From assembly GCA_020444425.1 (NCBI GenBank), contig JAHLLB010000001.1:266938-330937 (forward strand): a stretch of DNA of 64,000 nt, read 5' to 3'. Below the pieces are notes generated by a model. It was given only the letters and a program-made list of their open reading frames with translations. It was not told the DNA's origin and made no database searches. Made by a program: the position numbers and the translations under genes. Shown here one piece after another: positions 3,616 through 37,929 of this stretch (position 1 is its first letter; each line of letters opens with the position of its first letter). Source of the stretch: a bacterium. Its GTDB lineage: Bacteria > Electryoneota > Electryoneia > Electryoneales > Electryoneaceae.

Positions 3616-3869
3616 GGCGGCAAGCGGTATACGGTTGTCGGTAGGTGGTTGTCCGTGATCGGTGAACGGTTGATGATAGATGAAATACGATGTCGCCCGG
3701 GCTGAAGCCCAAGGGCGTGTGTGCTGTGGGTTCCTGACTTACGGACAATCCCGGGCTGAAGCCCGAGGGCAAGAATAGATACCCCAGAAGCGATGTTCTC
3801 CAGATAGCGATGTGCTCCGGATTGGTATGTGCCCCTGATGGCTTTGCCAGCAGGGATTATCCGCACAGA

Positions 3870-4760
3870 TGTCCCCCGCGCAGGAAAGGGGACATGTGAA
3901 CGGATTCATGTCCTCAATTCGAGTGGGTCTGCTGAAGAGATTATAGTCCTTTTCCGATGTGTGGCGCGTCAAGCCGTTCACTTGTCCCCGTCTGGATTGA
4001 GCTGACAGGGGGACAACTGTGGCACAAACCGGTCCCCACACCCTATCCACCCCCGCTATCGACTTGGTCACTCAGATGTCCCCCGCGCAGGAAAGGGGAC
4101 ATGTGAACGGATACATGTCCTTAATTCGAGTGAGTCTGCTGTAGAGATTGTAGTCCTTTTTGCGATGTGTGGCGCGTCAAGCCGTTCACTTGTCCCCGTC
4201 TGGATTGAGCTGACAGGGGGACAACTGTGGCACAAACCGGTCCCCACACCCTATCCACCCCTCAATCGACTTGGTCACTCACACCGATCCGACAGCATCC
4301 AATGCCACAGATGTCCCCCGCGCAGGAAAGGGGACATGTGAACGGATACACGACCTTAATTCGAGTGAGTCTGCTGTAGAGATTGTAGTCCTTTTTGCGA
4401 TGTGTGGTGCGTCAAGCCGTTCACTTGTCCCCGTCTGGATTGAGCTGACAGGGGGACAACTGTGGCACAAACCGGTCCCCACACCCTATCCACCCCCGCT
4501 ATCGACTTGGTCACTCAGATGTCCCCCGCGCAGGAAAGGGGACATGTGAACGGATACATGTCCTTAATTCGAGTGAGTCTGCTGTAGAGATTGTAGTCCT
4601 TTTTGCGATGTGTGGCGCGTCAAGCCGTTCACTTGTCCCCGTCTGGATTGAGCTGACAGGGGGACAACTGTGGCACAAACCGGTCCCCACACCCTATCCA
4701 CCCCTCAATCGACTTGGTCACTCACACCGATCCGACAGCATCCAATGCCACAGATGTCCC
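3870..4760. repeat. Tandem array: two ~440-bp copies, each of two related subunits (~207 and ~237 bp), so four units at about 3875, 4074, 4311 and 4518. Each unit holds several perfect hairpins.
   Basis: Direct reading shows near-identical copies of ATGTCCCCCGCGCAGGAAAGGGGACATGTGAACGGATACATGTCC...TTGTCCCCGTCTGGATTGAGCTGACAGGGGGACAACTGTGGCACAAACCGGTCCCC. Three hairpins are evident: ATGTCCCC/GGGGACAT, GGACATGT/ACATGTCC and TTGTCCCC/GGGGACAA. The two subunit types alternate and end CCCCGCTATCGACTTGGTCACTCAG versus CCTCAATCGACTTGGTCACTCACACCGATCCGACAGCATCCAATGCCACAG. Confidence 0.85.
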
Positions 4761-6801: not shown

Positions 6802-8637
6802 TTAGCGGACGAGCATCACTTTCTGGGTCGCGTTCAACTGGCCCGGGACCATCGCGCGGATGAAATACAGCCCGCTGGCGAGGTTGGACGCGTCAAACGT
6901 CAGGTTGTGCTGACCGGCGCCGAACTGGCCGTTCGCGATCTCGGCCACCTGCTGCCCGGCGACATTGTACGCAACAACCGTCAGGTCCGCCGTTTCCGGC
7001 AACGCGATGTTGAGCGTCGTCGTCGGGTTGAACGGGTTCGGGTAGGCTGCGTTCAGAGCATATTCGCTCGGCAGCGTTTCGTTGCTGCTCAGGTCGGCCG
7101 TTTCGCTGGCGACCGGCCTGGCGACCCATTCGTATCCGTTCAGCGGGAAGATATCGCCGCTGATGTCCGCGTTCTGAGCGGGCACCACTTCAAACTCGAA
7201 GCAGTCGGTCACATACTCGTTGGCGACATCAACACCAACGCAGAGGGTAAAGAATCCCGGAGGTGCGCCGTTCACAGCCTGGTTCAGGGTGAGGTCGAAA
7301 ATGTTGCCGGAAACGTACGTGAACTGCTCCTTGCTGATGTTGTATTCACGGCCGTTCTGCAGGATCGCGTAGATCCAATACTGCGCAAGCAGGTTGCCGG
7401 TCGTGTTGGTCGCGGTGAAGTACAGGTCGTAGTCGAACGTGCCACCCTGCGGAACCTGCAGCGGGTCCGCGGACGGGGTCAGGTCGAGAACGAGACCGTA
7501 CACCGAGCTGTTCATGTCCCAGAAACCGACACGGGCCGCGTAGTGCGCCACACCGACCAGTTCAATGTCGTCATCCATGTCGATGTTCGCCGCAGCAACC
7601 GCGCTCGCGCCGTTGTACAGGATCGAGATGACATGCTTCTGGTAGTTGTGATCGCCGAGGTTTTCCCACCAAGCGACTTCGTCGTCACCCAGCGCTGCGC
7701 CGTAGATGTCCAGGTCGCCGTCACCGTCCATGTCCGCCACGCCGATATCCATTACGCCGTAGAAGCCCCAGGAGATGTCGATACGGTCCCAGCTTGAACC
7801 AGTGCCGCTGAAGTTTTCGAACACCGATACGGTGCTGCCGTCGCCAACATCACCACAGGCGACGAGGTCCAGGTCGCCGTCGCCGTTCAGGTCGCCGACG
7901 TCGATAGCCTTAGGATGCTCGTAGTTGTTCCCAACGGAGAAGTGCTGCCAGTTGGTGCCGTTGCTGCCGATGGACAAATCGTTCCACCAGGCGATTCCGT
8001 TGGCACGCGCGCTGACGATGTCCGTCCGGCCGTCACCGTTGAAGTCACCCTTGGCAATGCCGACACGCTGGAATTCGTTGAAATCGGCGTCGGTACGGTT
8101 CCAGTACGAGACACCGTCGCCCGGATTACGGAACCAGCCGATCTGGGAACCGGCAATCGCGGCGTCGAGGTCGCCGTCGCTGTCCATGTCGAACAGTTCG
8201 ATCTGCCACGGCATCCCCATGTTGCCCTGGGCCTGGTCGCTGATCACGTGATCGGTCCACACGGACGCGTCGCCGTTGTCGTTGGACAACCAGCCGGCGC
8301 GATGATCGGCCGGACCGTAGCCCTCACGGGCGTAGGCGATGTCGATGTTGCCGTCGGCGTCGATGTCGTCGAGATCGACACGCACGAGACCCGGCATGTT
8401 GGTCAGGATGTCATGCTGGGTGTACTGCGCGTCACCATCATTTTCCCACCAGCTCAATGTGCCGCCGTAATACGTGGTGGTCACGAGATCCGGGAAGGTG
8501 TCACCATTGAGGTCGGCCACCTGTACGTCAATCGGGCCGTCCATGTTGTTTCCTACCGCCATATACCCCCAGTCCTGCGCGGACGCGATGGACGCGACCA
8601 GCAGCAAGGGCAGGCAAAACGCGACTACTTTTTTCAT
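6802..8637 (-). CDS. FG-GAP/VCBS-repeat beta-propeller protein with T9SS C-terminal sorting domain
   Basis: ORF 6802..8844. The likely start is ATG at 8637 (MKKVVAFCLPLLLVASIASAQ signal peptide, GGAGGA SD). Repeated DxNGDGxxD(I/L)V motifs (DLNGDGDLDLVACGD, DFNGDGRTDIVSA, DMDGDGDLDIYGA). C-terminal YPNPFNPTTT...GLYFIRAMVPGQLNATQKVMLVR. Confidence 0.75.
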   Translation of the reverse strand: MKKVVAFCLPLLLVASIASAQDWGYMAVGNNMDGPIDVQVADLNGDTFPDLVTTTYYGGTLSWWENDGDAQYTQHDILTNMPGLVRVDLDDIDADGNIDIAYAREGYGPADHRAGWLSNDNGDASVWTDHVISDQAQGNMGMPWQIELFDMDSDGDLDAAIAGSQIGWFRNPGDGVSYWNRTDADFNEFQRVGIAKGDFNGDGRTDIVSARANGIAWWNDLSIGSNGTNWQHFSVGNNYEHPKAIDVGDLNGDGDLDLVACGDVGDGSTVSVFENFSGTGSSWDRIDISWGFYGVMDIGVADMDGDGDLDIYGAALGDDEVAWWENLGDHNYQKHVISILYNGASAVAAANIDMDDDIELVGVAHYAARVGFWDMNSSVYGLVLDLTPSADPLQVPQGGTFDYDLYFTATNTTGNLLAQYWIYAILQNGREYNISKEQFTYVSGNIFDLTLNQAVNGAPPGFFTLCVGVDVANEYVTDCFEFEVVPAQNADISGDIFPLNGYEWVARPVASETADLSSNETLPSEYALNAAYPNPFNPTTTLNIALPETADLTVVAYNVAGQQVAEIANGQFGAGQHNLTFDASNLASGLYFIRAMVPGQLNATQKVMLVR

Positions 8638-8963
8638 TGCGATCCTCCATGACTGTGAAAAAGCCGGCAGCAGCCCGCAACAGGCTGGACCGGTGGATGT
8701 ACGTGTTTCGGCAAAGATGCGCGAATTTGTTTGAAAGCTACCCCTCTCTCGACTCCAAAGTTCCAACCGGAGTCCCCGAGAGTCAGGCAAACCTAACTTC
8801 GAAATGTTTCCGCACCATGCAGGCTGTGTGGTGAACAAGTACACGGGGGATGTACGAATCCTCTCTTACAACGACAGGGTGTGAAAACGGCTGGTAGTTT
8901 ATGATTCTTTCATCATACTTATGATACTCCTGTTTGTGATAGAATTTGTAGAAATTCGCCGTT

Positions 8964-23552: not shown

Positions 23553-23646
23553 TGATCGGTAGTCGGTAAACGGTTGTCGGTTATTGGTAATCGGTAATCG
23601 GTAATCGGTAATCGGTAATCGGTAATCGGTAATCGGTAATCGGTAA
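23553..23646. repeat. Heptanucleotide tandem repeat (CGGTAAT)n, 8 perfect units preceded by about 5 degenerate units
   Basis: GATCGGTAGTCGGTAAACGGTTGTCGGTTATTGGTAATCGGTAATCGGTAATC... ending ...CGGTAACTGAG. Begins immediately after the mmdB stop codon. Confidence 0.9.
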
Positions 23647-23684
23647 CTGAGACCAAGTAAGAAGTATTGAAGATGAAATAAATC

Positions 23685-23712
23685 GGGGACACTTACTCCG
23701 TTAAGTGTCCCC
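23685..23712. repeat. Palindromic element GGGGACACTTA-CTCCGT-TAAGTGTCCCC; may also terminate sodC on the minus strand, since a T-rich tract follows
   Basis: Perfect 11-bp stem. Member of a family that recurs at 31995, 32072 and 34082. On the minus strand the hairpin is followed by GATTTATTTCATCTTC. Confidence 0.6.
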
Positions 23713-23802
23713 GTTGCTCTCATCGTCTCTGTACTTCTTTTTACTTCGTACTTCTTTTCTACTTTCGACTTCTTTGCGACTCTGTACTTCTGATCGACTT
23801 CG

Positions 23803-25273: not shown

Positions 25274-25350
25274 AACGGGCTCTGGGCTCTGGGCTCTGGG
25301 CTCTGGGCTCTGGGCTCTGAGACCTCAGACCGCAGACCGCAGACCGCAGA
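25264..25350. repeat. Heptamer tandem repeats (GGGCTCT)x5 followed by (CAGACCG)x3-4
   Basis: GGGCTCTGGGCTCTGGGCTCTGGGCTCTGGGCTCTGAGACCTCAGACCGCAGACCGCAGACCGCAGATAG. Overlaps the last codons and 3' flank of the carbonic anhydrase gene. Confidence 0.9.
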
Positions 25351-25424
25351 TAGAAATGTGGCCGTGTCTGCTCGTCAGACGCGGCCCCGTTGCTCGTACC
25401 AAGTGCTGACCGCAACGGACCACA

Positions 25425-25666
25425 AGCTCTTGCCCGTGTTGGCTCTGCCAACGCGGATCAACCGCCTACCATATCCTGGCAGCTTCCGCGGGCATCAGCT
25501 CTTGCCCGTGTTGGCTCCGCCAACGCGGGTCATCCGCACGGTAAGCTTCGCTCACCATCGACCATCCGCGGCAGCACAGCTTCCGCGGGCATCAGCGGCC
25601 ATCCGTGGAGTACCGGACCTCTTATTGTTGGTTTACTCACATCTCACATCTCACAACTCACAGCTA
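25425..25666. repeat. Repeat-rich intergenic segment: two ~45-bp direct repeats, two 20-bp direct repeats and an (ATCTCAC) heptamer tract
   Basis: AGCTCTTGCCCGTGTTGGCTC(T/C)GCCAACGCGG(A/G)TCA(A/T)CCGC at 25425 and 25497. CAGCTTCCGCGGGCATCAGC at 25480 and 25577. ACTCACATCTCACATCTCACAACTCACAGC at 25634-25666. Confidence 0.8.
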
Positions 25667-29924: not shown

Positions 29925-31943
29925 ATGAACCGACTGCTGACCGTGCTGCCCCTGCTGCTTGTTCTGCTGTGTGCTTTCGTTGCTGACGCGACTCAGCCGA
30001 TCGAGGAATACACCAACGAGGGGCTGCGTTGGCCGACCGACATTTCCCGTCGCATCACCAGCACCTACGGCGAATACCGCGCGGACCGTTTTCACGCCGG
30101 TCTCGACTTCAGCATCAACGGCAGCATCGGCGCCCCGGCCTACGCCATCGACAACGGGCACATCTCGCGGATCAAGACAACCTTCAACGGTTACGGCCGG
30201 GTCATCTACTTCACCCTCGACAGCGGCGACATCGCAGTCTACGCTCACCTTGACGGGTTCGAGGATCGGATTGAGGCGGTCGTCCGTCAGCAACAGTTGC
30301 ACCAGGGCCGCTACGAGATCGAGTATTGGCCGGGACCAGACGAGCTACGCTACGAAAAGGGTGACGTGGTCGCGTATTGCGGCGACACCGGCGCGGGTGC
30401 ACCGCACCTGCATTTTGAGTTGCGCACTCCGAGGAATGAACCGTACGACCCGGTGATGGCGGGCTTCTACTACAAGGATTCCTACGCACCGTATGTGCGG
30501 CGAGTGGCGATCCGTCCGCTCGACGGCGACAGCGAGGTCGAGGGCCGGATGGAATCGCATGTGTTCGATGTGCGGCAGGGAGTTGTCGCGCCGGTTCAGT
30601 TTTATGGCAAGGTCGGGCTCAGCGTGCAGGCGCACGATTTCCAGCAGGGCGGCTGGTCGCGGCTGGGTGTAAAAACGTTCGAGATGTACCTGGACGATGT
30701 CCTGTTGCACAAGACGGTGATGGACACCTTCCAATACTCGTTCAACCGTCATTCACGACTCGAATTCGACTACGAGCTGCGGCGCGACGGCTGGAACAAG
30801 TTCCGCCGCATGTACCCGGTTCCCGGCAACAAGCTGACGCTCTACGACGAGTCCCTCCCCGGCGGAATCATCGACAGCCGGGAGATTGGCGCCGGCATGC
30901 ACATGGTGCGTTTCCGCGTCACCGATCATCGCGGAAATGTCGGCGAGGCGACGTGGCCGATTGAAGCGTTGCACGAACCAGCGTTGCCCGCCGCCTCCAC
31001 CCCAGACAGCCTGCCGATGTTTGCATTGACGGAACGAGTTCAGATGGATCTCGACCTGCGTTTCACGTTGACCGGCACAACCGCTGAACTGTTCTTGACG
31101 GATCCGGACACGATTGAGGTTGCCCGTGCCTACGCAAACAGCCCGGCGTTTCTCACGCCGAAACGAATGGTCCCATTGCGGCGAGGATGGTACACGCGCA
31201 CGACGATGTCGCTGGACCAATCCGGTCTGACACCGGTTACGGTGCTGCTCGAGGACACGGCAGGTGTTGTGTATCAGGTTAGCGAGGAGAAACGGCTGAT
31301 CCCGTTGCGTGCGGGGAACAACCGTGACTTTCATCTGCCGGAGTATGGCCTCAGCATTCACTTCAACGGTTACGGGCTACCTTGGGACATGGTCGCCGAA
31401 TTGACAGTTGACACCACCGAAACCGGCACCGACGCGCCGGTCTTCACCATCACGCCAAACGACTACCCGTTCCTGACCACGTTCGAGATGACGTTCGATT
31501 CTCAGTCAGATCCTTTCCCACGTCACGCGTTGATGGTCTACCGCGAGCATGACGGGCAACGGTGGAACTACCTCAGCAACGAACGGGCGGCGAACGGGCT
31601 GCGTCTGATTGCGGATGTACTCAGCTTCGAATCGTTCTCGGTTGCTCAGGATACGATTCCGCCGGAGTTGTACAACCTTACACCCAACAACGGGGCCGCG
31701 TTCAAGACTCGCAAGCCGTTGCTGGCGGCCCGAATCCGGGACACGTTCAGCGGGCTCGATATGGCAGAAAGTGGCATCTGGCTGGACGGCGAAGAGGTGA
31801 TCTGGGTGTACGATCCGGACGCCGCCCGCATTGAATACCGGCCGTGGGAATCACTATCCGCCGGACGCCATGAGTGGCGGATTGTCGCGGCTGACAACGC
31901 TGGCAACCGCACCGAGTACACCCGAAGTTTTGTGATTGATTGA
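29925..31943 (+). CDS. Secreted M23-family metallopeptidase domain protein with large C-terminal extension
   Basis: Signal peptide MNRLLTVLPLLLVLLCAFVADA. M23 motifs HAGLDFS and GDTGAGAPHLHFELR (HxxxD ... HxH). Confidence 0.7.
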   Translation: MNRLLTVLPLLLVLLCAFVADATQPIEEYTNEGLRWPTDISRRITSTYGEYRADRFHAGLDFSINGSIGAPAYAIDNGHISRIKTTFNGYGRVIYFTLDSGDIAVYAHLDGFEDRIEAVVRQQQLHQGRYEIEYWPGPDELRYEKGDVVAYCGDTGAGAPHLHFELRTPRNEPYDPVMAGFYYKDSYAPYVRRVAIRPLDGDSEVEGRMESHVFDVRQGVVAPVQFYGKVGLSVQAHDFQQGGWSRLGVKTFEMYLDDVLLHKTVMDTFQYSFNRHSRLEFDYELRRDGWNKFRRMYPVPGNKLTLYDESLPGGIIDSREIGAGMHMVRFRVTDHRGNVGEATWPIEALHEPALPAASTPDSLPMFALTERVQMDLDLRFTLTGTTAELFLTDPDTIEVARAYANSPAFLTPKRMVPLRRGWYTRTTMSLDQSGLTPVTVLLEDTAGVVYQVSEEKRLIPLRAGNNRDFHLPEYGLSIHFNGYGLPWDMVAELTVDTTETGTDAPVFTITPNDYPFLTTFEMTFDSQSDPFPRHALMVYREHDGQRWNYLSNERAANGLRLIADVLSFESFSVAQDTIPPELYNLTPNNGAAFKTRKPLLAARIRDTFSGLDMAESGIWLDGEEVIWVYDPDAARIEYRPWESLSAGRHEWRIVAADNAGNRTEYTRSFVID

Positions 31944-31994
31944 GTTCCAGCTATCCAGTCCATCTGAACTTGTCTTTGATTACTCCCCGCCACT

Positions 31995-32022
31995 GGGGAC
32001 ACTTTGTCCCCAAAGTGTCCCC
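31995..32022. repeat. Palindromic element GGGGACACTTTG-TCCC-CAAAGTGTCCCC
   Basis: Perfect 12-bp inverted repeat, read directly. Upstream of valS. Confidence 0.8.
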
Positions 32023-32071
32023 AATGGCAGAACTATCTGCGTCGCAACTGCTTTGACTCAGGTGGATGTAT

Positions 32072-32106
32072 CCCGGGGACACTTTCGGAGAAAGCGTCCC
32101 CCGGGT
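32072..32106. repeat. Palindromic element CCCGGGGACACTTTC-GGAG-AAAGCGTCCCCCGGG; 25 of 27 bases match the copy inside valS
   Basis: Read directly. One mismatch within the stem. Confidence 0.8.
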
Positions 32107-32189
32107 GTAGGGGCTTTCGTGATCGACTGATCGCTCGATCTCCGGTTTTCATCTCGCCATTTCCCTGACTACCTTCCGTGCTGCATTCT

Positions 32190-32256
32190 GATGCGGACTG
32201 CGGACTGCGGACTGCGGACTGCGGACTGCGGACTGCGGACTGCGGACTGCGGACGC
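32190..32256. repeat. Heptamer tandem repeat (TGCGGAC)x9
   Basis: GATGCGGACTGCGGACTGCGGACTGCGGACTGCGGACTGCGGACTGCGGACTGCGGACGCAC, about 50 bp upstream of the valS start. Confidence 0.9.
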
Positions 32257-32305
32257 ACATTGTAACAGCATACAGCTCATTGCTCATAGCTCAGGACTTA
32301 CAGCC

Positions 32306-34972
32306 GTGGATATCCCGAAGCAATACGACCCGAAAGAAGTGGAAGCGCACTGGCGCGAATGGTGGCACGAGAACGATTTCTTCAAGACCAGTCCGAGCAT
32401 GTCGAAGGAACCGTACGTGATCATGATGCCGCCGCCGAATGTAACCGGCGTGCTGCACATGGGCCACGCGTTACAGGACACGATCCAGGACGAGCTGATC
32501 CGTTACTACCGCATGAAGGGCTTTGAAGCCCACTGGCAGGCGGGCAAGGATCACGCCGGGATCGCGACGCAGACTGTGGTCGAACGGGAGATGAAGAAAA
32601 ACGGCGAGCCGGACCGTCGCACGATGGGCCGTGAGAAGTTCATTGAACGTGTCTGGCAGTTTGTGGAAAAGAACCGCAACACGATCAGCACGCAGAAGAA
32701 GTCGCTCGGTATCTCGCCGGACTTCTCGAAAGAGCGATTTACTCTTGACGACGGCCTCAGCGACGCCGTCCAGGAAGCGTTCATCAAGCTGCATCGGGAG
32801 GGCCTGATCTATCGCGGACCGTACATCGTTAACTGGTCGCCGAAGTTGCAGTCCGCCATCTCGGACGAAGAGGTGGACTTCAAGGACGAGCAGGGGCACC
32901 TGTGGTACATCCGCTATCCGGGTGTGGACGGTGGCGAGGGTGTGGTTGTCGCGACGACCCGTCCGGAGACGATGCTCGGCGACACGGCGGTGATGGTCCA
33001 TCCGGAAGACGACCGATACAAGCATCTCGTCGGCAAGGAAGTGGTGTTGCCGTTGACCGGACGAAACATTCCGGTGATCGCGGACGATTACGTCGATCGT
33101 GAATTCGGCACCGGCGCGGTGAAAGTGACCCCGGCGCACGACCCGAACGACTTCGAGGTCGGCCGCCGTCACGATCTGGACATGCCGGTCATCCTCGACA
33201 CCGAGGCCCGGATCCAGGCACCAGCGCCGGAGACCTACATCGGGCTGGACCGTGACGCTGCCCGAGAGGCTGTCGTCAAGGATCTCGAGGATCAGGGCTT
33301 CCTCGTCAAGACCGAGGAGTACACGCACAGCGTCGGCTATTGCCACCGGACCAAGGTGCGCATTGAGCCGTATCTGAGCACGCAGTGGTTCCTCAAGATG
33401 AAGCCGCTTGCAAAACGGGCTATCGAAGTCGTTCGCAACGGCGAGATCAAATTTGTCCCGGATCGCTGGGGCAAGGTCTACTTCCAGTGGATGGAAAACA
33501 TTCGCGACTGGTGCATCTCGCGGCAGTTGTGGTGGGGTCACCGGATCCCGGCGTACTACTGCGAGGAGTGCAACTACGTCCACGTTGGCACCGACCACCC
33601 GGACATCTGCCCGGCGTGCGGGTCGAACCAGTGGCGGCAGGATGAGGACGTGCTCGATACGTGGTTCTCGAGCTGGCTGTGGACCTTCTCAACCCTCGGC
33701 TGGCCGAAACAGACCGGCGATTTGCTGTATTATCACCCGACGAATGTACTCGTCAGCGGCTACGACATCATCTTCTTCTGGATCGCCCGGATGATCGTCG
33801 CAAGTTTGTATTTCGTGGACGAGATCCCGTTCAAGCAGGTGTATATCACCGGGATGATCAAGGACAAGCAGGGCCGTTGGATGAGCAAGTCGCTCGGCAA
33901 TGGCATCGACCCGCTGGAAATGGTCGATCAATACGGCGCGGACGCGGTGCGTTACTCATTGACTGTGCTCAACACCGTCGGGCAGGACATTCGCTTGGAT
34001 CCCAGCCGTTTCGAGATGGGTCGCAACTTCGCGAACAAGCTGTGGAACTCGTTCCGTTTCCTCGTCAATCGGGAACTGGACGGTGACACTTTCGGAGAAA
34101 GTGTCCCCTCCCCGATGGAAATCGAAGATCGCTGGATCGAGGGCCGGATGATCCAGACCGCGCGTGAGCTGGAAGAAAAGATAGAACAGTACCGGCTGGA
34201 TGAGGCGTTGATCGGCCTCTACCGTTTCATCTGGAACGATTTCTGTGACTGGTACATCGAGACGATCAAGACGCGTATCGGCGACGACGCCGACGCTGCC
34301 TCGGCGAAGCAGACGCTGCACTTTGCGATCAACGTTTTCGACAAGATCATTCACCTGCTGCATCCGTTCATGCCGTTCATCACCGAAGAGATGTACCAGA
34401 CATTGAACGGTGTCATGGGTGAAGCGTGGGCGCAGGACCGTGCGGGCAGCATCGCGGTGTCGCCGTTCCCGGACTTTTCGGATAGTTCGATCGACGAGAC
34501 GGCGGTCATGGAATTTGAATACGTCCGTGAGTTGGTCGGTGCAATCCGCAATGTGCGCGGCGAACTGCTGGTTCCGCCGGTCGCGGAAGCGCAGTTGGTG
34601 ATGCGTGCGGACGATCCGAAGCTGGACATCGTGCGTCGTGAGTGGGTGACGGTGAAGCGACTGGCCCGGTTGAGTGGTGACGAACTGGTGACCGCCAACA
34701 CCAAGCCGAAAGCCTCCGCGACGACGTTGGTCGAAGGCCGCGAGATCTACATCCCGCTGGAAGGGTTGATCGATCTGGACGCCGAGAAAGAGCGTGTGCA
34801 GAAGGAAATCGGTAAGCTCGAAGGGTTGTTCAAGGGCGTGGAAAAGAAGCTGTCGAACGAAAAGTTCGTCGCCAACGCGCCGGAGGATGTGGTCGCGAAG
34901 GAGCGCGAGAAGATGGACACCTACAGCAACGATCTCGCGAAACTGAAGGCGCATCTGGCGGATTTGAGCTGA
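32306..34972 (+). CDS. valS: Valine--tRNA ligase
   Basis: 888 aa, GTG start. HIGH motif PPNVTGVLHMGHAL. KMSKS motif (GRWMSKSLGNGIDP). Editing and anticodon-binding domains. C-terminal coiled-coil. Confidence 0.95.
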   Translation: MDIPKQYDPKEVEAHWREWWHENDFFKTSPSMSKEPYVIMMPPPNVTGVLHMGHALQDTIQDELIRYYRMKGFEAHWQAGKDHAGIATQTVVEREMKKNGEPDRRTMGREKFIERVWQFVEKNRNTISTQKKSLGISPDFSKERFTLDDGLSDAVQEAFIKLHREGLIYRGPYIVNWSPKLQSAISDEEVDFKDEQGHLWYIRYPGVDGGEGVVVATTRPETMLGDTAVMVHPEDDRYKHLVGKEVVLPLTGRNIPVIADDYVDREFGTGAVKVTPAHDPNDFEVGRRHDLDMPVILDTEARIQAPAPETYIGLDRDAAREAVVKDLEDQGFLVKTEEYTHSVGYCHRTKVRIEPYLSTQWFLKMKPLAKRAIEVVRNGEIKFVPDRWGKVYFQWMENIRDWCISRQLWWGHRIPAYYCEECNYVHVGTDHPDICPACGSNQWRQDEDVLDTWFSSWLWTFSTLGWPKQTGDLLYYHPTNVLVSGYDIIFFWIARMIVASLYFVDEIPFKQVYITGMIKDKQGRWMSKSLGNGIDPLEMVDQYGADAVRYSLTVLNTVGQDIRLDPSRFEMGRNFANKLWNSFRFLVNRELDGDTFGESVPSPMEIEDRWIEGRMIQTARELEEKIEQYRLDEALIGLYRFIWNDFCDWYIETIKTRIGDDADAASAKQTLHFAINVFDKIIHLLHPFMPFITEEMYQTLNGVMGEAWAQDRAGSIAVSPFPDFSDSSIDETAVMEFEYVRELVGAIRNVRGELLVPPVAEAQLVMRADDPKLDIVRREWVTVKRLARLSGDELVTANTKPKASATTLVEGREIYIPLEGLIDLDAEKERVQKEIGKLEGLFKGVEKKLSNEKFVANAPEDVVAKEREKMDTYSNDLAKLKAHLADLS
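34082..34108 (+). repeat. Palindromic element GGTGACACTTTC-GGAG-AAAGTGTCCCC located in-frame inside valS, encoding the GDTFGESVPSP segment
   Basis: Perfect 9-bp stem GACACTTTC/GAAAGTGTC with loop GGAG. Near-identical to the intergenic copy at 32072-32106. Confidence 0.8.
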
Positions 34973-34999: not shown

Positions 35000-35239
35000 T
35001 TGCAGGGGTTCAGCATGACGAACTACAGATTTACGGTGCTGATTGAGCACGATGAAGACGGTTGGATCGCGACTGTTCCAGAGTTGCAGGGGTGCTTCAC
35101 GCAGGGCGATACCTATGAGGAACTCCTTGCGAACGTGCAAGATGTGCTGAAGGGTCACGTTGAACTGTATCTGGAACGTGGCGAACCGGTACCACAACCC
35201 GGGACACTTACCGTGACCAGCGTCGAGGTGGCGGTGTGA
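35000..35239 (+). CDS. hicB: HicB-family antitoxin (UPF0150 domain)
   Basis: MTNYRFTVLIEHDEDGWIATVPELQGCFTQGDTYEELLANVQDVLKGHVELYLERGEP matches the HicB N-terminal fold consensus. Confidence 0.7.
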   Translation: MQGFSMTNYRFTVLIEHDEDGWIATVPELQGCFTQGDTYEELLANVQDVLKGHVELYLERGEPVPQPGTLTVTSVEVAV

Positions 35240-35450
35240 GTCCGCGCTTACCACGAATGACGGCCAGGGAAGCCATCCGTTTGGTTGAAAAGCACGGTTT
35301 CCAATGGGTGCGAACAACGGGAAGCCATTACATCTATGAAAACAAAAGGGTCGAAAGGTCTCGATACCTTTTCATGCAGGAAAGATCTTGCACCCCAAGA
35401 TCCTGAAATCAAGCCTGACGATTGCGGAGATTGATCCGAACGACCTTTGA
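35236..35450 (+). pseudogene. hicA: HicA-family toxin (mRNA interferase), disrupted by a frameshift at the A4G3 tract around 35344-35350
   Basis: The frame from GTG at 35236 gives VSPRLPRMTAREAIRLVEKHGFQWVRTTGSHYIYENK, then runs out of family similarity (RVERSRYLFMQERSCTPRS*). The -1 frame that opens after the TGA at 35337 gives KGRKVSIPFHAGKILHPKILKSSLTIAEIDPNDL*, which continues the HicA consensus (GSHxxFxHPxKPG-VTVPHHxxKDLxxGTLxSILKQAGL). Confidence 0.55.
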
Positions 35451-35483: not shown

Positions 35484-35518
35484 AACCGGGACATGTCATC
35501 GACGTGCCCCGTTTTTTT
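35484..35518 (+). terminator. Candidate rho-independent terminator after the hicBA module
   Basis: CGGGACATGTCATCGACGTGCCCCG followed by TTTTTTTT. The stem pairing is imperfect. Confidence 0.4.
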
Positions 35519-35555
35519 TACTCAAACCTCAAACCTCACACCTCATACCTGCCGT

Positions 35556-37850: not shown

Positions 37851-37929
37851 GTCTCTGATGCTATAGGCATCAGTCCGTTTTCCGCAGCCAGTTGTCTCAA
37901 GACTCAGGACTCAGGACTCCTGTGCTGGC

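Follow-up and report, generated by a model that had tools for sequence, protein, structure and literature searches.

The 64,000-nt stretch analyzed here (the window: positions 266,938 to 330,937 of contig JAHLLB010000001.1, assembly GCA_020444425.1, Electryoneaceae) contains four copies of a short palindrome built on the arm GGGGACACTT, three of them between genes and one translated in frame within valS, the gene for valyl-tRNA synthetase (ValRS). Repetitive extragenic palindromic (REP)-type stem-loops flank single-copy genes for RAYT (REP-associated tyrosine transposase) or TIRYT transposases and are thought to be multiplied by these enzymes. On balance, we consider that the GGGGACACTT palindromes are probably REP-type repeats of this RAYT/TIRYT-associated kind (HUH, Y1), one copy of which was written into valS.

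The palindrome family in the window and in related genomes

The four copies and the features around valS are listed below; loci from other sequences are designated by L numbers throughout.

23685-23712: family copy of subtype B8 (loop actccgtt), GGGGACACTTactccgttAAGTGTCCCC, between a convergent OAD_beta-like gene (+) and sodC (-)
29925-31943: Peptidase_M23-like gene, the 5' neighbor of the valS slot
31944-32305, + strand: intergenic slot between the M23-like gene and valS, containing only the hairpin doublet
31995-32022: family copy of subtype A, GGGGACACTTtgtccccaAAGTGTCCCC (GGGGACACTTTG-tccc-CAAAGTGTCCCC), first half of the doublet in the M23-like gene/valS gap
32075-32101 (core): family copy of subtype B7, GGGGACACTTtcggagaAAGCGTCCCC (GGGGACACTTTC-gga-GAAAGCGTCCCC), second half of the doublet, its loop inverted relative to the A copy
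32113-32131, + strand: noncoding repetition of the final ~16 nt of the M23-like gene, TTCGTGATCGACTGA, an exact match to the end of that gene in locus L102
32306-34972, + strand: valS, an intact 888-codon open reading frame (ORF) with a GTG start
34082-34108, + strand: family copy of subtype B7, GGTGACACTTtcggagaAAGTGTCCCC, in frame in valS, codons 593-601 (GDTFGESVP, then SP)

All four palindromes lie where an earlier note on this DNA had placed them, and the span 32072-32106 given there for the third is the 32075-32101 core with its ccc/cggg flanks. The copies at 23685-23712 and 31995-32022 have perfect 10-bp arms (GGGGACACTT/AAGTGTCCCC) around 8 nt, and in the latter the stem extends to gccacT/Aatggc; the 32075-32101 copy has one arm mismatch, and the valS hairpin can also be written GGTGACACTTTCGGAGAAAGTGTCCCC. 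With at most one mismatch allowed, the arm 10-mer was found 13 times in the window against 3.7 ± 2.1 times in shuffled sequence, and none of 100 shuffles reached 13. The pattern GGGGACA-N3-30-TGTCCCC occurred twice where 0 matches were expected. Together, this excess and the hairpin pattern indicate that the palindromes did not arise by chance. All exact GGGGACACTT 10-mers in the window are palindrome arms, and singles with one mismatch occur at about chance level. DNA uptake sequences (DUS/USS) were therefore rejected as an explanation, isolated arms not being enriched in the window.

The earlier note had proposed a genome-wide pattern search, and further copies were indeed recovered when one genome per species was scanned for GGGGACACTT-N3-14-AAGTGTCCCC. 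The scan yielded at least 101 loci, including at least 19 perfect copies in the metagenome-assembled genome (MAG) CAXXKJ01 and at least 14 in MAG CAZKGR01. CAXXKJ01 encodes the closest ValRS (P0001, 96% identity), and its locus L102 is syntenic with the window at 86-90% DNA identity. Copies likewise occur in bin DRR093004_bin.59 and in two further syntenic loci, L103 and L104 (ValRS 86-87%); each 22.7-kb syntenic locus holds 3-4 copies. Thus, a multicopy family has been kept across at least five species-level genomes of one uncultured FCB-group clade, in which neighboring genes carry Por_Secre_tail domains and for which the nearest named ValRS sequences, at 55%, come from LCP-89 and Calditrichota.

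From 40 perfect copies, we found that the true unit is 27-28 nt long and consists of 12-bp arms (GGGGACACTT plus two compensating bases) around a 3-4-nt loop with a TCC/GGA core. Arm positions 11-12 covary (TG/CA, AC/GT, or TC/GA), with two such inner pairs in 27 of the 40 copies. The loops fall into subtypes A (tgtccYca), B8 (NctccgNN or its complement), and B7 (tcggaga or its complement). Flanking c...g bases are present in 21/40 copies, and 14/40 have at least three further complementary outer flank bases of variable sequence, against ~0.6 expected. At six loci (the window, L102, L054, L072, L079, and L103), an A copy and a B copy are joined by a 16- to 52-nt spacer into a doublet with opposite loop polarity (TCC versus GGA), the halves being of different subtypes.

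In orthologous intergenic regions, close relatives differ in whether copies are present, in how many there are, and in where they lie. The doublet 5' of valS is missing in L102 and placed differently in L103, where a copy related to the 31995 copy lies upstream of valS; the orthologue of the 23685 copy is at position 1367 of L102. Paralogous copies in L085, L096, and L017 have ~22 nt of 5' flank and ~40 nt of 3' flank in common with the 23685 copy, and ~60-100 nt of extra flank is shared by a subset of B8 copies that includes it. Because of these common flanks, the repeated unit is longer for at least some of the B8 copies. In detail, the ~22-nt 5' flank AGTATTGAAGATAAATAAGTT was seen at window 23661-23760, L085 2060-2170 (reverse), L096 4543-4593, and L017 2545-2596, the ~40-nt 3' flank was common to the window and L085 copies only, and tandem 6-7-mers of differing sequence precede these B8 copies. 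At valS, the end of the M23-like gene (31926-31943) and its copy at 32113-32131 form an imperfect direct repeat that brackets a 170-nt block holding the doublet. Neither the longer B8 flanks nor this 16-nt bracketing repeat is general in the family.

The valS copy and the ValRS loop

As the earlier note had reported, 25 of the 27 bases of the valS copy agree with the 32075 copy. Each of the two matches the B7 consensus GGGGACACTTTCGGAGAAAGTGTCCCC at 26/27 positions, and their similarity follows from membership in one B7 subfamily. The same consensus occurs identically in L054 and L075, and the 25/27 match does not in itself require the upstream copy as donor. A local donor is nevertheless plausible, given the 2-kb distance and a shared subtype and orientation, a combination seen in ~2 of 22 copies in CAXXKJ01.

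We then compared the protein segment with 60 ValRS homologues. Between NKLWNSFRFLVNR and EIEDRWIE, both sequence and length are hypervariable, and the GDTFGESVP segment was present in none of the 60, including the 96%-identical P0001. The latter has GVTEAPGDAL in place of GDTFGESVPSPM between well-conserved flanks, and in a wider alignment the orthologue reads DLAGVTEAPGDAL versus ELDGDTFGESVPSPM in the window. No copy of the GGGGACACTT family was found at the valS site in L102, L103, L104, or L106. Between the window and its nearest relative, ~30 nt differ in the loop, with a net gain of 6 nt (2 codons), and the DNA alignment of the two revealed no target-site duplication (TSD) or other boundary mark at the valS copy. 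A metagenome scan with exact valS anchors for linker variants gave 0 matches, and the ValRS of the window itself, queried with V or M as its first residue, had no database entry.

An AlphaFold2 model of ValRS (mean predicted local distance difference test score [pLDDT] 89, predicted template modeling score 0.81) places residues 588-605 in a nonhelical connection between helices 566-587 and 606-627. In line with the suggestion that the segment might map to a surface loop, block 591-600 lies in this interhelix connection and is modeled with the lowest confidence of the whole protein (pLDDT 60). In Thermus thermophilus ValRS (1GAX), the aligned counterpart of the segment is a loop of similar length. 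Since this loop is already present in all ValRS, is hypervariable, and has about the same length in 1GAX, the repeat has overwritten residues of a tolerant loop rather than adding an insert of its own. The proposal of a lineage-specific insertion between conserved blocks therefore needs to be amended: the segment is indeed confined to the window among the orthologues examined, but the change amounts to a net 6 nt within a preexisting loop.

ValRS loops of similar length in distant species could suggest that the segment is ancestral coding sequence that happens to be palindromic, with DNA uptake-type signals as a related possibility. We regard this as extremely improbable, and consider it refuted by the shuffle counts and the confinement of exact arms to palindromes described above, by the 26/27 match to a dispersed consensus, and by the occurrence of the segment in 0/60 orthologues. 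A second translated copy was identified in L075, 39 nt before the stop codon of the 390-amino-acid ORF P0121, where it encodes GDTFSESVPS in the same frame as the valS copy. It lies in a C-terminal extension of ~28 residues (GDTFSESVPS...) that is missing in homologues of 357-372 amino acids.

The same ValRS loop carries a different perfect palindrome, CCGGGGCTTYAGCCCCGG, in two sister lineages, L104/L105 and L106/L107 (ValRS 85-87%), at positions 11784-11801 of L104, L105, and L106 and 4594-4611 of L107. Searched for as a family, CCGGGGCTTYAGCCCCGG had no further copies in the sequence examined. This recurrence, and the near-identical hairpin in the window's valS leader, would be accounted for if the valS hairpin functioned in the mRNA, as a translational pause site where the catalytic body meets the anticodon-binding domain or as a partner of the hairpin in the 5' untranslated region in regulating valS, and were kept by selection. 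However, RNA folding revealed no strong hairpin at the site in L102 (z -0.5) or L103 (z +1.25), and the local fold in the window is itself unexceptional in its context (z -1.6). The leader doublet is not conserved in these relatives, no Rfam family matches, and published intragenic REPs occur in many unrelated genes (Di Nocera et al. 2013; PMC3733652). We therefore consider a selected mRNA function to be quite unlikely.

Transposase genes, RNA hairpins, and the origin of the repeats

Genes for Y1 transposases lie beside valS in three sister lineages, and homologous genes occur in two alphaproteobacterial loci.

L218 (GCA_043801585.1): Peptidase_M23, Y1_Tnp (7912-8690), and valS in this order, the transposase gene being flanked on either side by hairpins CAAAAGTGACAGTTACCTTTG
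L216 (ValRS 72%): Y1_Tnp at 3930-4720, 178 nt upstream of valS, with GTGACAGTT-type hairpins
L211 (GCA_020444265.1, ValRS 74%): Y1_Tnp at 7177-7951, 2 kb upstream of valS, with palindromes of 24-bp arms (...TTAGTGACAGTTACTAATTA...) and a third copy 7 kb away
L050 (Alphaproteobacteria): homologous transposase gene flanked by GGGACACTCTGGTGACAGTCAC, with a GGGGACACTT palindrome 3 kb away
L214 (Alphaproteobacteria): homologous transposase gene flanked by GGGGACAGTATATATTTAT

All five proteins keep the HUH motif and the tyrosine, and they match the NCBIfam model for REP-associated tyrosine transposases at 63-78 bits, just under its cutoff of 80. The linkage between transposase gene and valS in L218, L216, and L211 looks vertically inherited. 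In L218, the transposase gene fills the exact slot in which the window has its only doublet, and of the ~50 intergenic regions of the window, the one at valS is the only one with a doublet. From its position, the window doublet may be the scar of a transposase gene.

The repeats themselves are also connected by sequence. The motif GKGACAST stands at the outer arm end of the flanking repeats of all five transposase loci, of the window family (GGGACACT), and of the valS copy (GTGACACT). Terminal inverted repeats (TIRs) that flank RAYT-like TIRYT genes share the motif GGGGWSAS, according to Di Nocera et al. 2013 (PMC3733652), and the outer arm motif of the window family, GGGGACAC, fits it as GGGG-W(A)-S(C)-A-S(C). 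Transposase genes are flanked by GGGGACAG in L214 and by GGGGACAC in L050.

The arms GGGGACACTT/AAGTGTCCCC also form separate multicopy families in unrelated phyla, as seen in the genome scan (L001-L101) and a metagenome scan (L108-L209), both with uncalibrated background. Their loops differ: gtatac in high-GC Sphingomonadales-like sequences, tgccagca in soil contigs of 68-70% GC, gatttt in Desulfuromonadales, and ttttcaaa in Clostridia. These same-arm families probably represent the GGGGWSAS/TIRYT class, with the reservation that the background is uncalibrated and a rough estimate leaves a hairpin background possible. Scans of a viral collection with the palindrome and two composition-matched controls returned 1, 0, and 0 matches, too few for calibration, and a literature search with the sequence string returned only primers and unrelated matches.

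Several observations weigh against a transposase-associated origin. We queried by tblastn with Escherichia coli RayT and IS608 TnpA and then with the L211 and L050 proteins. These searches detected no RAYT/TIRYT gene in the window or in the ~420 kb of sequence examined from its clade, and no RAYT remnant in the window; across all examined loci, the matches were confined to L050/L145, L211, and an IS200-like gene in L206. More weakly, no protein of the 4.54-Mb CAXXKJ contig is among the best 120 homologues of the L211 transposase, a list that ends at ~53% identity. The sister-lineage transposases are flanked by GTGACAGTTAC-type hairpins and not by GGGGACACTT, and the GTGACAGTTAC-type repeat was not found in the window clade; a cognate enzyme of the GGGGACACTT family was thus not identified among the sequences examined. 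The GTAG/CGTC tag of classical REPs is not present in the family, whose arms start with GGGG and usually have a c...g flank. As A-B doublets exist at several other loci, the one 5' of valS may have an origin other than a lost transposase gene. Finally, the valS copy has no clean element boundaries: at 86-90% DNA identity between the loci, and only ~87% genome-wide with the nearest relative, divergence is too high to reduce the ~30-nt difference to a single event. Two ORFs bracketed by two palindromes, in L067 and L003, were considered as transposase candidates and rejected, as they look stomatin-like and aminotransferase-like, respectively, by sequence appearance.

An alternative, possible but clearly less probable than the reading we favor, is that the palindromes are 3'-end RNA hairpins selected by the host as terminators or mRNA stabilizers, possibly bound by a sequence-specific factor, with a common sequence kept by selection and spread by recombination, gene conversion, or quasi-palindrome template switching without a dedicated transposase. 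The valS copy would then result from ectopic conversion or a template switch from the copy 2 kb upstream, with which it shares subtype and orientation; the change at valS resembles a patch replacement without a TSD, and the failure to find a transposase in the clade sequence examined agrees with such an origin. Nearly all family copies are intergenic, at a distance of 20-130 nt from the preceding stop codon and in many cases between convergently transcribed genes. The apparent copies within ORFs near 5' ends most likely reflect overextended ORF calls. Both the compensatory inner pairs and the lengthening of stems by variable complementary flanks speak for RNA hairpins, and the hairpins are very stable as RNA. 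The 23685 copy, on the minus strand after sodC and followed by ATTTATTT, is the sole copy in the window that resembles an intrinsic terminator; its RNA fold reaches -27.3 kcal/mol (z -5.9), and that of the 31995/32075 doublet region -71.4 kcal/mol (z -5.7).

However, a T-run of at least four adjoins the stem in only 5 of 40 perfect copies, so that a GC-rich hairpin directly followed by a U/T tract is not a property of the family as a whole, and ordinary terminators with unrelated stems are also used in this genome, for example at 35492. Rfam returned no family in the whole window or in a permissive scan of 31900-34300. The arm motif matches transposase-flanking repeats both in the five loci and in the literature (PMC3733652), and a shared enzyme family explains the occurrence of the same arms in multicopy families of unrelated phyla more easily than host selection does. 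The variable presence of copies in orthologous intergenic regions of close relatives likewise argues against host-selected hairpins. The intergenic copies probably act as 3'-end RNA hairpins only incidentally. The idea that the family can sit at terminators, promoters, and inside ORFs is thus borne out for the translated valS copy, while most copies are not canonical terminators and no promoter element was shown.

Under the transposase-associated origin that we favor, a Y1 transposase acting in trans would have copied the family, in the past or still today, in the form of single-stranded hairpin DNA, and the doublet in the slot between the M23-like gene and valS would be the remnant or the replacement of a transposase cassette. 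Since no transposase was found in the window clade, we infer this mobilization. One B7 copy may have entered valS through the action of that enzyme or through short-patch repair templated by the copy 2 kb upstream. Its persistence could be due to its being in frame, lacking stop codons, and falling in a surface loop that is hypervariable and connects the catalytic body with the anticodon-binding helical bundle; in this loop, nine different residues would have been tolerated. The valS copy is probably harmless. An unlikely extension of this scheme, suggested by the occurrence of the GGGGACACTT hairpin in the window and the CCGGGGCTTYAGCCCCGG palindrome in sister lineages at the same ValRS loop, is that a Y1 transposase that once stood, or still stands, beside valS acts preferentially on neighboring DNA and has hit the loop repeatedly, or that an mRNA hairpin at the domain boundary is selected.

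Other repeats and the place of the family among known systems

The window also contains a noncoding tandem array (3864-4760) of four ~208- to 235-nt units (2 × 443 nt at 97% identity). Two hairpins per unit are formed by ATGTCCCC...GGGGACAT and TTGTCCCC...GGGGACAA. The earlier note had derived these hairpins from the same stem core as the palindromes, and the array does hold eight GGGGACA and eight TGTCCCC heptamers. Their arm order is opposite (ATGTCCCC-loop-GGGGACAT), however, and they lie within ~210-nt units; by sequence, only the GGGGACA/TGTCCCC heptamer is held in common, and the array is not the same element. The array may represent small RNAs in tandem or a group of repeats akin to the family; it has no Rfam match and no copy in any examined locus. 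A tandem array with a ~108-nt period at L216 40-700 resembles it in style and contains GAGTGACTGTCAC, the core of the L216 transposase-flanking repeat, and AAGTGTCCC.

Heptanucleotide tandem repeats occur in many intergenic regions, at window positions 23555-23646, 25277-25350, 25636-25662, 32192-32254, 35521-35550, and 37896-37919, among others. Examples are ATCGGTA (×13), TGCGGAC (×9), and CTCAnnn-type runs just before start codons, often beside hairpins. Such tandems are also present in L102, L103, and L104, and the unit sequence varies between orthologous sites of close relatives. The same intergenic regions hold more small hairpin families, GTGGCCGTGTCTGCTNGNCAGACGCGGCC and GCTCTTGCCCGTGTTGGCTCYGCCAACGCGG (twice in the window), and the further hairpin families lie at the following positions.

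Window ~25360-25400 and 25430-25560: further hairpin families
L102 3020-3060 and 3170-3210: further hairpin families

Just 3' of valS, at window ~35010-35450, lies a hicAB-like toxin-antitoxin pair. A HicB-like gene occupies the same position in L102 (12795-13019) and L106 (12734-12958), and L107 has a full HicB/HicA pair; hicAB is missing in L103 and L104, which carry hairpin copies there instead.

Compared with known systems, the window family has the features of REPs, namely, a short palindromic unit, dispersed extragenic copies after 3' ends, and inverted pairing. Like the REP, REPIN, and BIME elements of E. coli and Pseudomonas (PMC3116915, PMC3337134, PMC5581495), its members are 20- to 40-nt stem-loops in extragenic positions after 3' ends; like REPINs and BIMEs, they form inverted dimers and are vertically inherited and clade specific. 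A link to a single-copy Y1 transposase gene flanked by the repeats, as in those systems, may also apply, the sister lineages having such a gene beside valS amid GTGACAGTTAC-type hairpins. Unlike REPs, which are usually imperfect, they have almost perfectly complementary arms, and unlike REPIN dimers, the doublet joins two distinct subtypes, A and B, and not one sequence inverted.

Di Nocera et al. 2013 (PMC3733652) describe TIR repeats as moderately abundant families of singles, dimers, and clusters, and REPs as located mostly after coding regions, between convergent or codirectional genes. The window family resembles these TIRYT TIRs in the fit of GGGGACAC to GGGGWSAS, in being dispersed and moderately abundant with some self-complementary members, and in occurring as singles, dimers, and clusters. 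A further resemblance to TIRtrons is that hairpins with GKGACAST, a related core, lie on both sides of homologous Y1 transposase genes in relatives. The family differs from them in that its units, compared here through the published motif, are short perfect hairpins (27-28 nt) and not long TIRs, and in that no transposase flanked by the exact GGGGACACTT repeat was found in the window-clade sequence examined. Of the label REP/MITE-like given by the earlier note, the REP-like, lineage-wide, dispersed character stands. The miniature inverted-repeat transposable element (MITE) part was dropped, since the copies have no TSD or direct repeat and the 27- to 28-nt unit falls short of the usual 100-400 bp.

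Translation of a palindrome in frame in an essential enzyme, presumably in a tolerant linker or loop, is common to the valS copy, Rickettsia palindromic elements (RPEs), and published intragenic REPs (PMC3733652). The analogy to RPEs drawn earlier holds for this outcome. In other respects, it does not: RPEs are 100-150 bp long and add peptide, whereas the valS element is 27 nt long and replaces residues of an existing loop with a net gain of two codons, and we therefore rejected assignment to the RPE class. The closer precedent is the intragenic REPs, which Additional file 3 of PMC3733652 records in many unrelated genes, including those for isoleucyl-tRNA synthetase (IleRS) and the glycyl-tRNA synthetase (GlyRS) beta subunit, with the same neutral-loop argument. 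In contrast to both intragenic REPs and RPEs, valS is the immediate neighbor of an ancestral transposase slot.

Because intragenic REPs, including cases in IleRS and GlyRS, and GGGGWSAS repeats flanking transposase genes are already described in that paper, we regard the family as new and the phenomenon as known, and the valS case as a well-supported example and not a new kind of system. The results add a well-documented REP-like family from an uncultured FCB-group lineage that is tied by motif and synteny to the RAYT/TIRYT transposase class. They also provide a clean example of a repeat translated inside an aminoacyl-tRNA synthetase, with the repeat-free orthologous state seen in a relative whose ValRS is 96% identical. 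That the intragenic copy adjoins an ancestral transposase slot offers a testable hint as to how these poorly understood elements spread. If the ValRS loop has indeed been hit repeatedly, the locus would be a natural record of RAYT-type enzymes writing hairpins into essential coding sequence.

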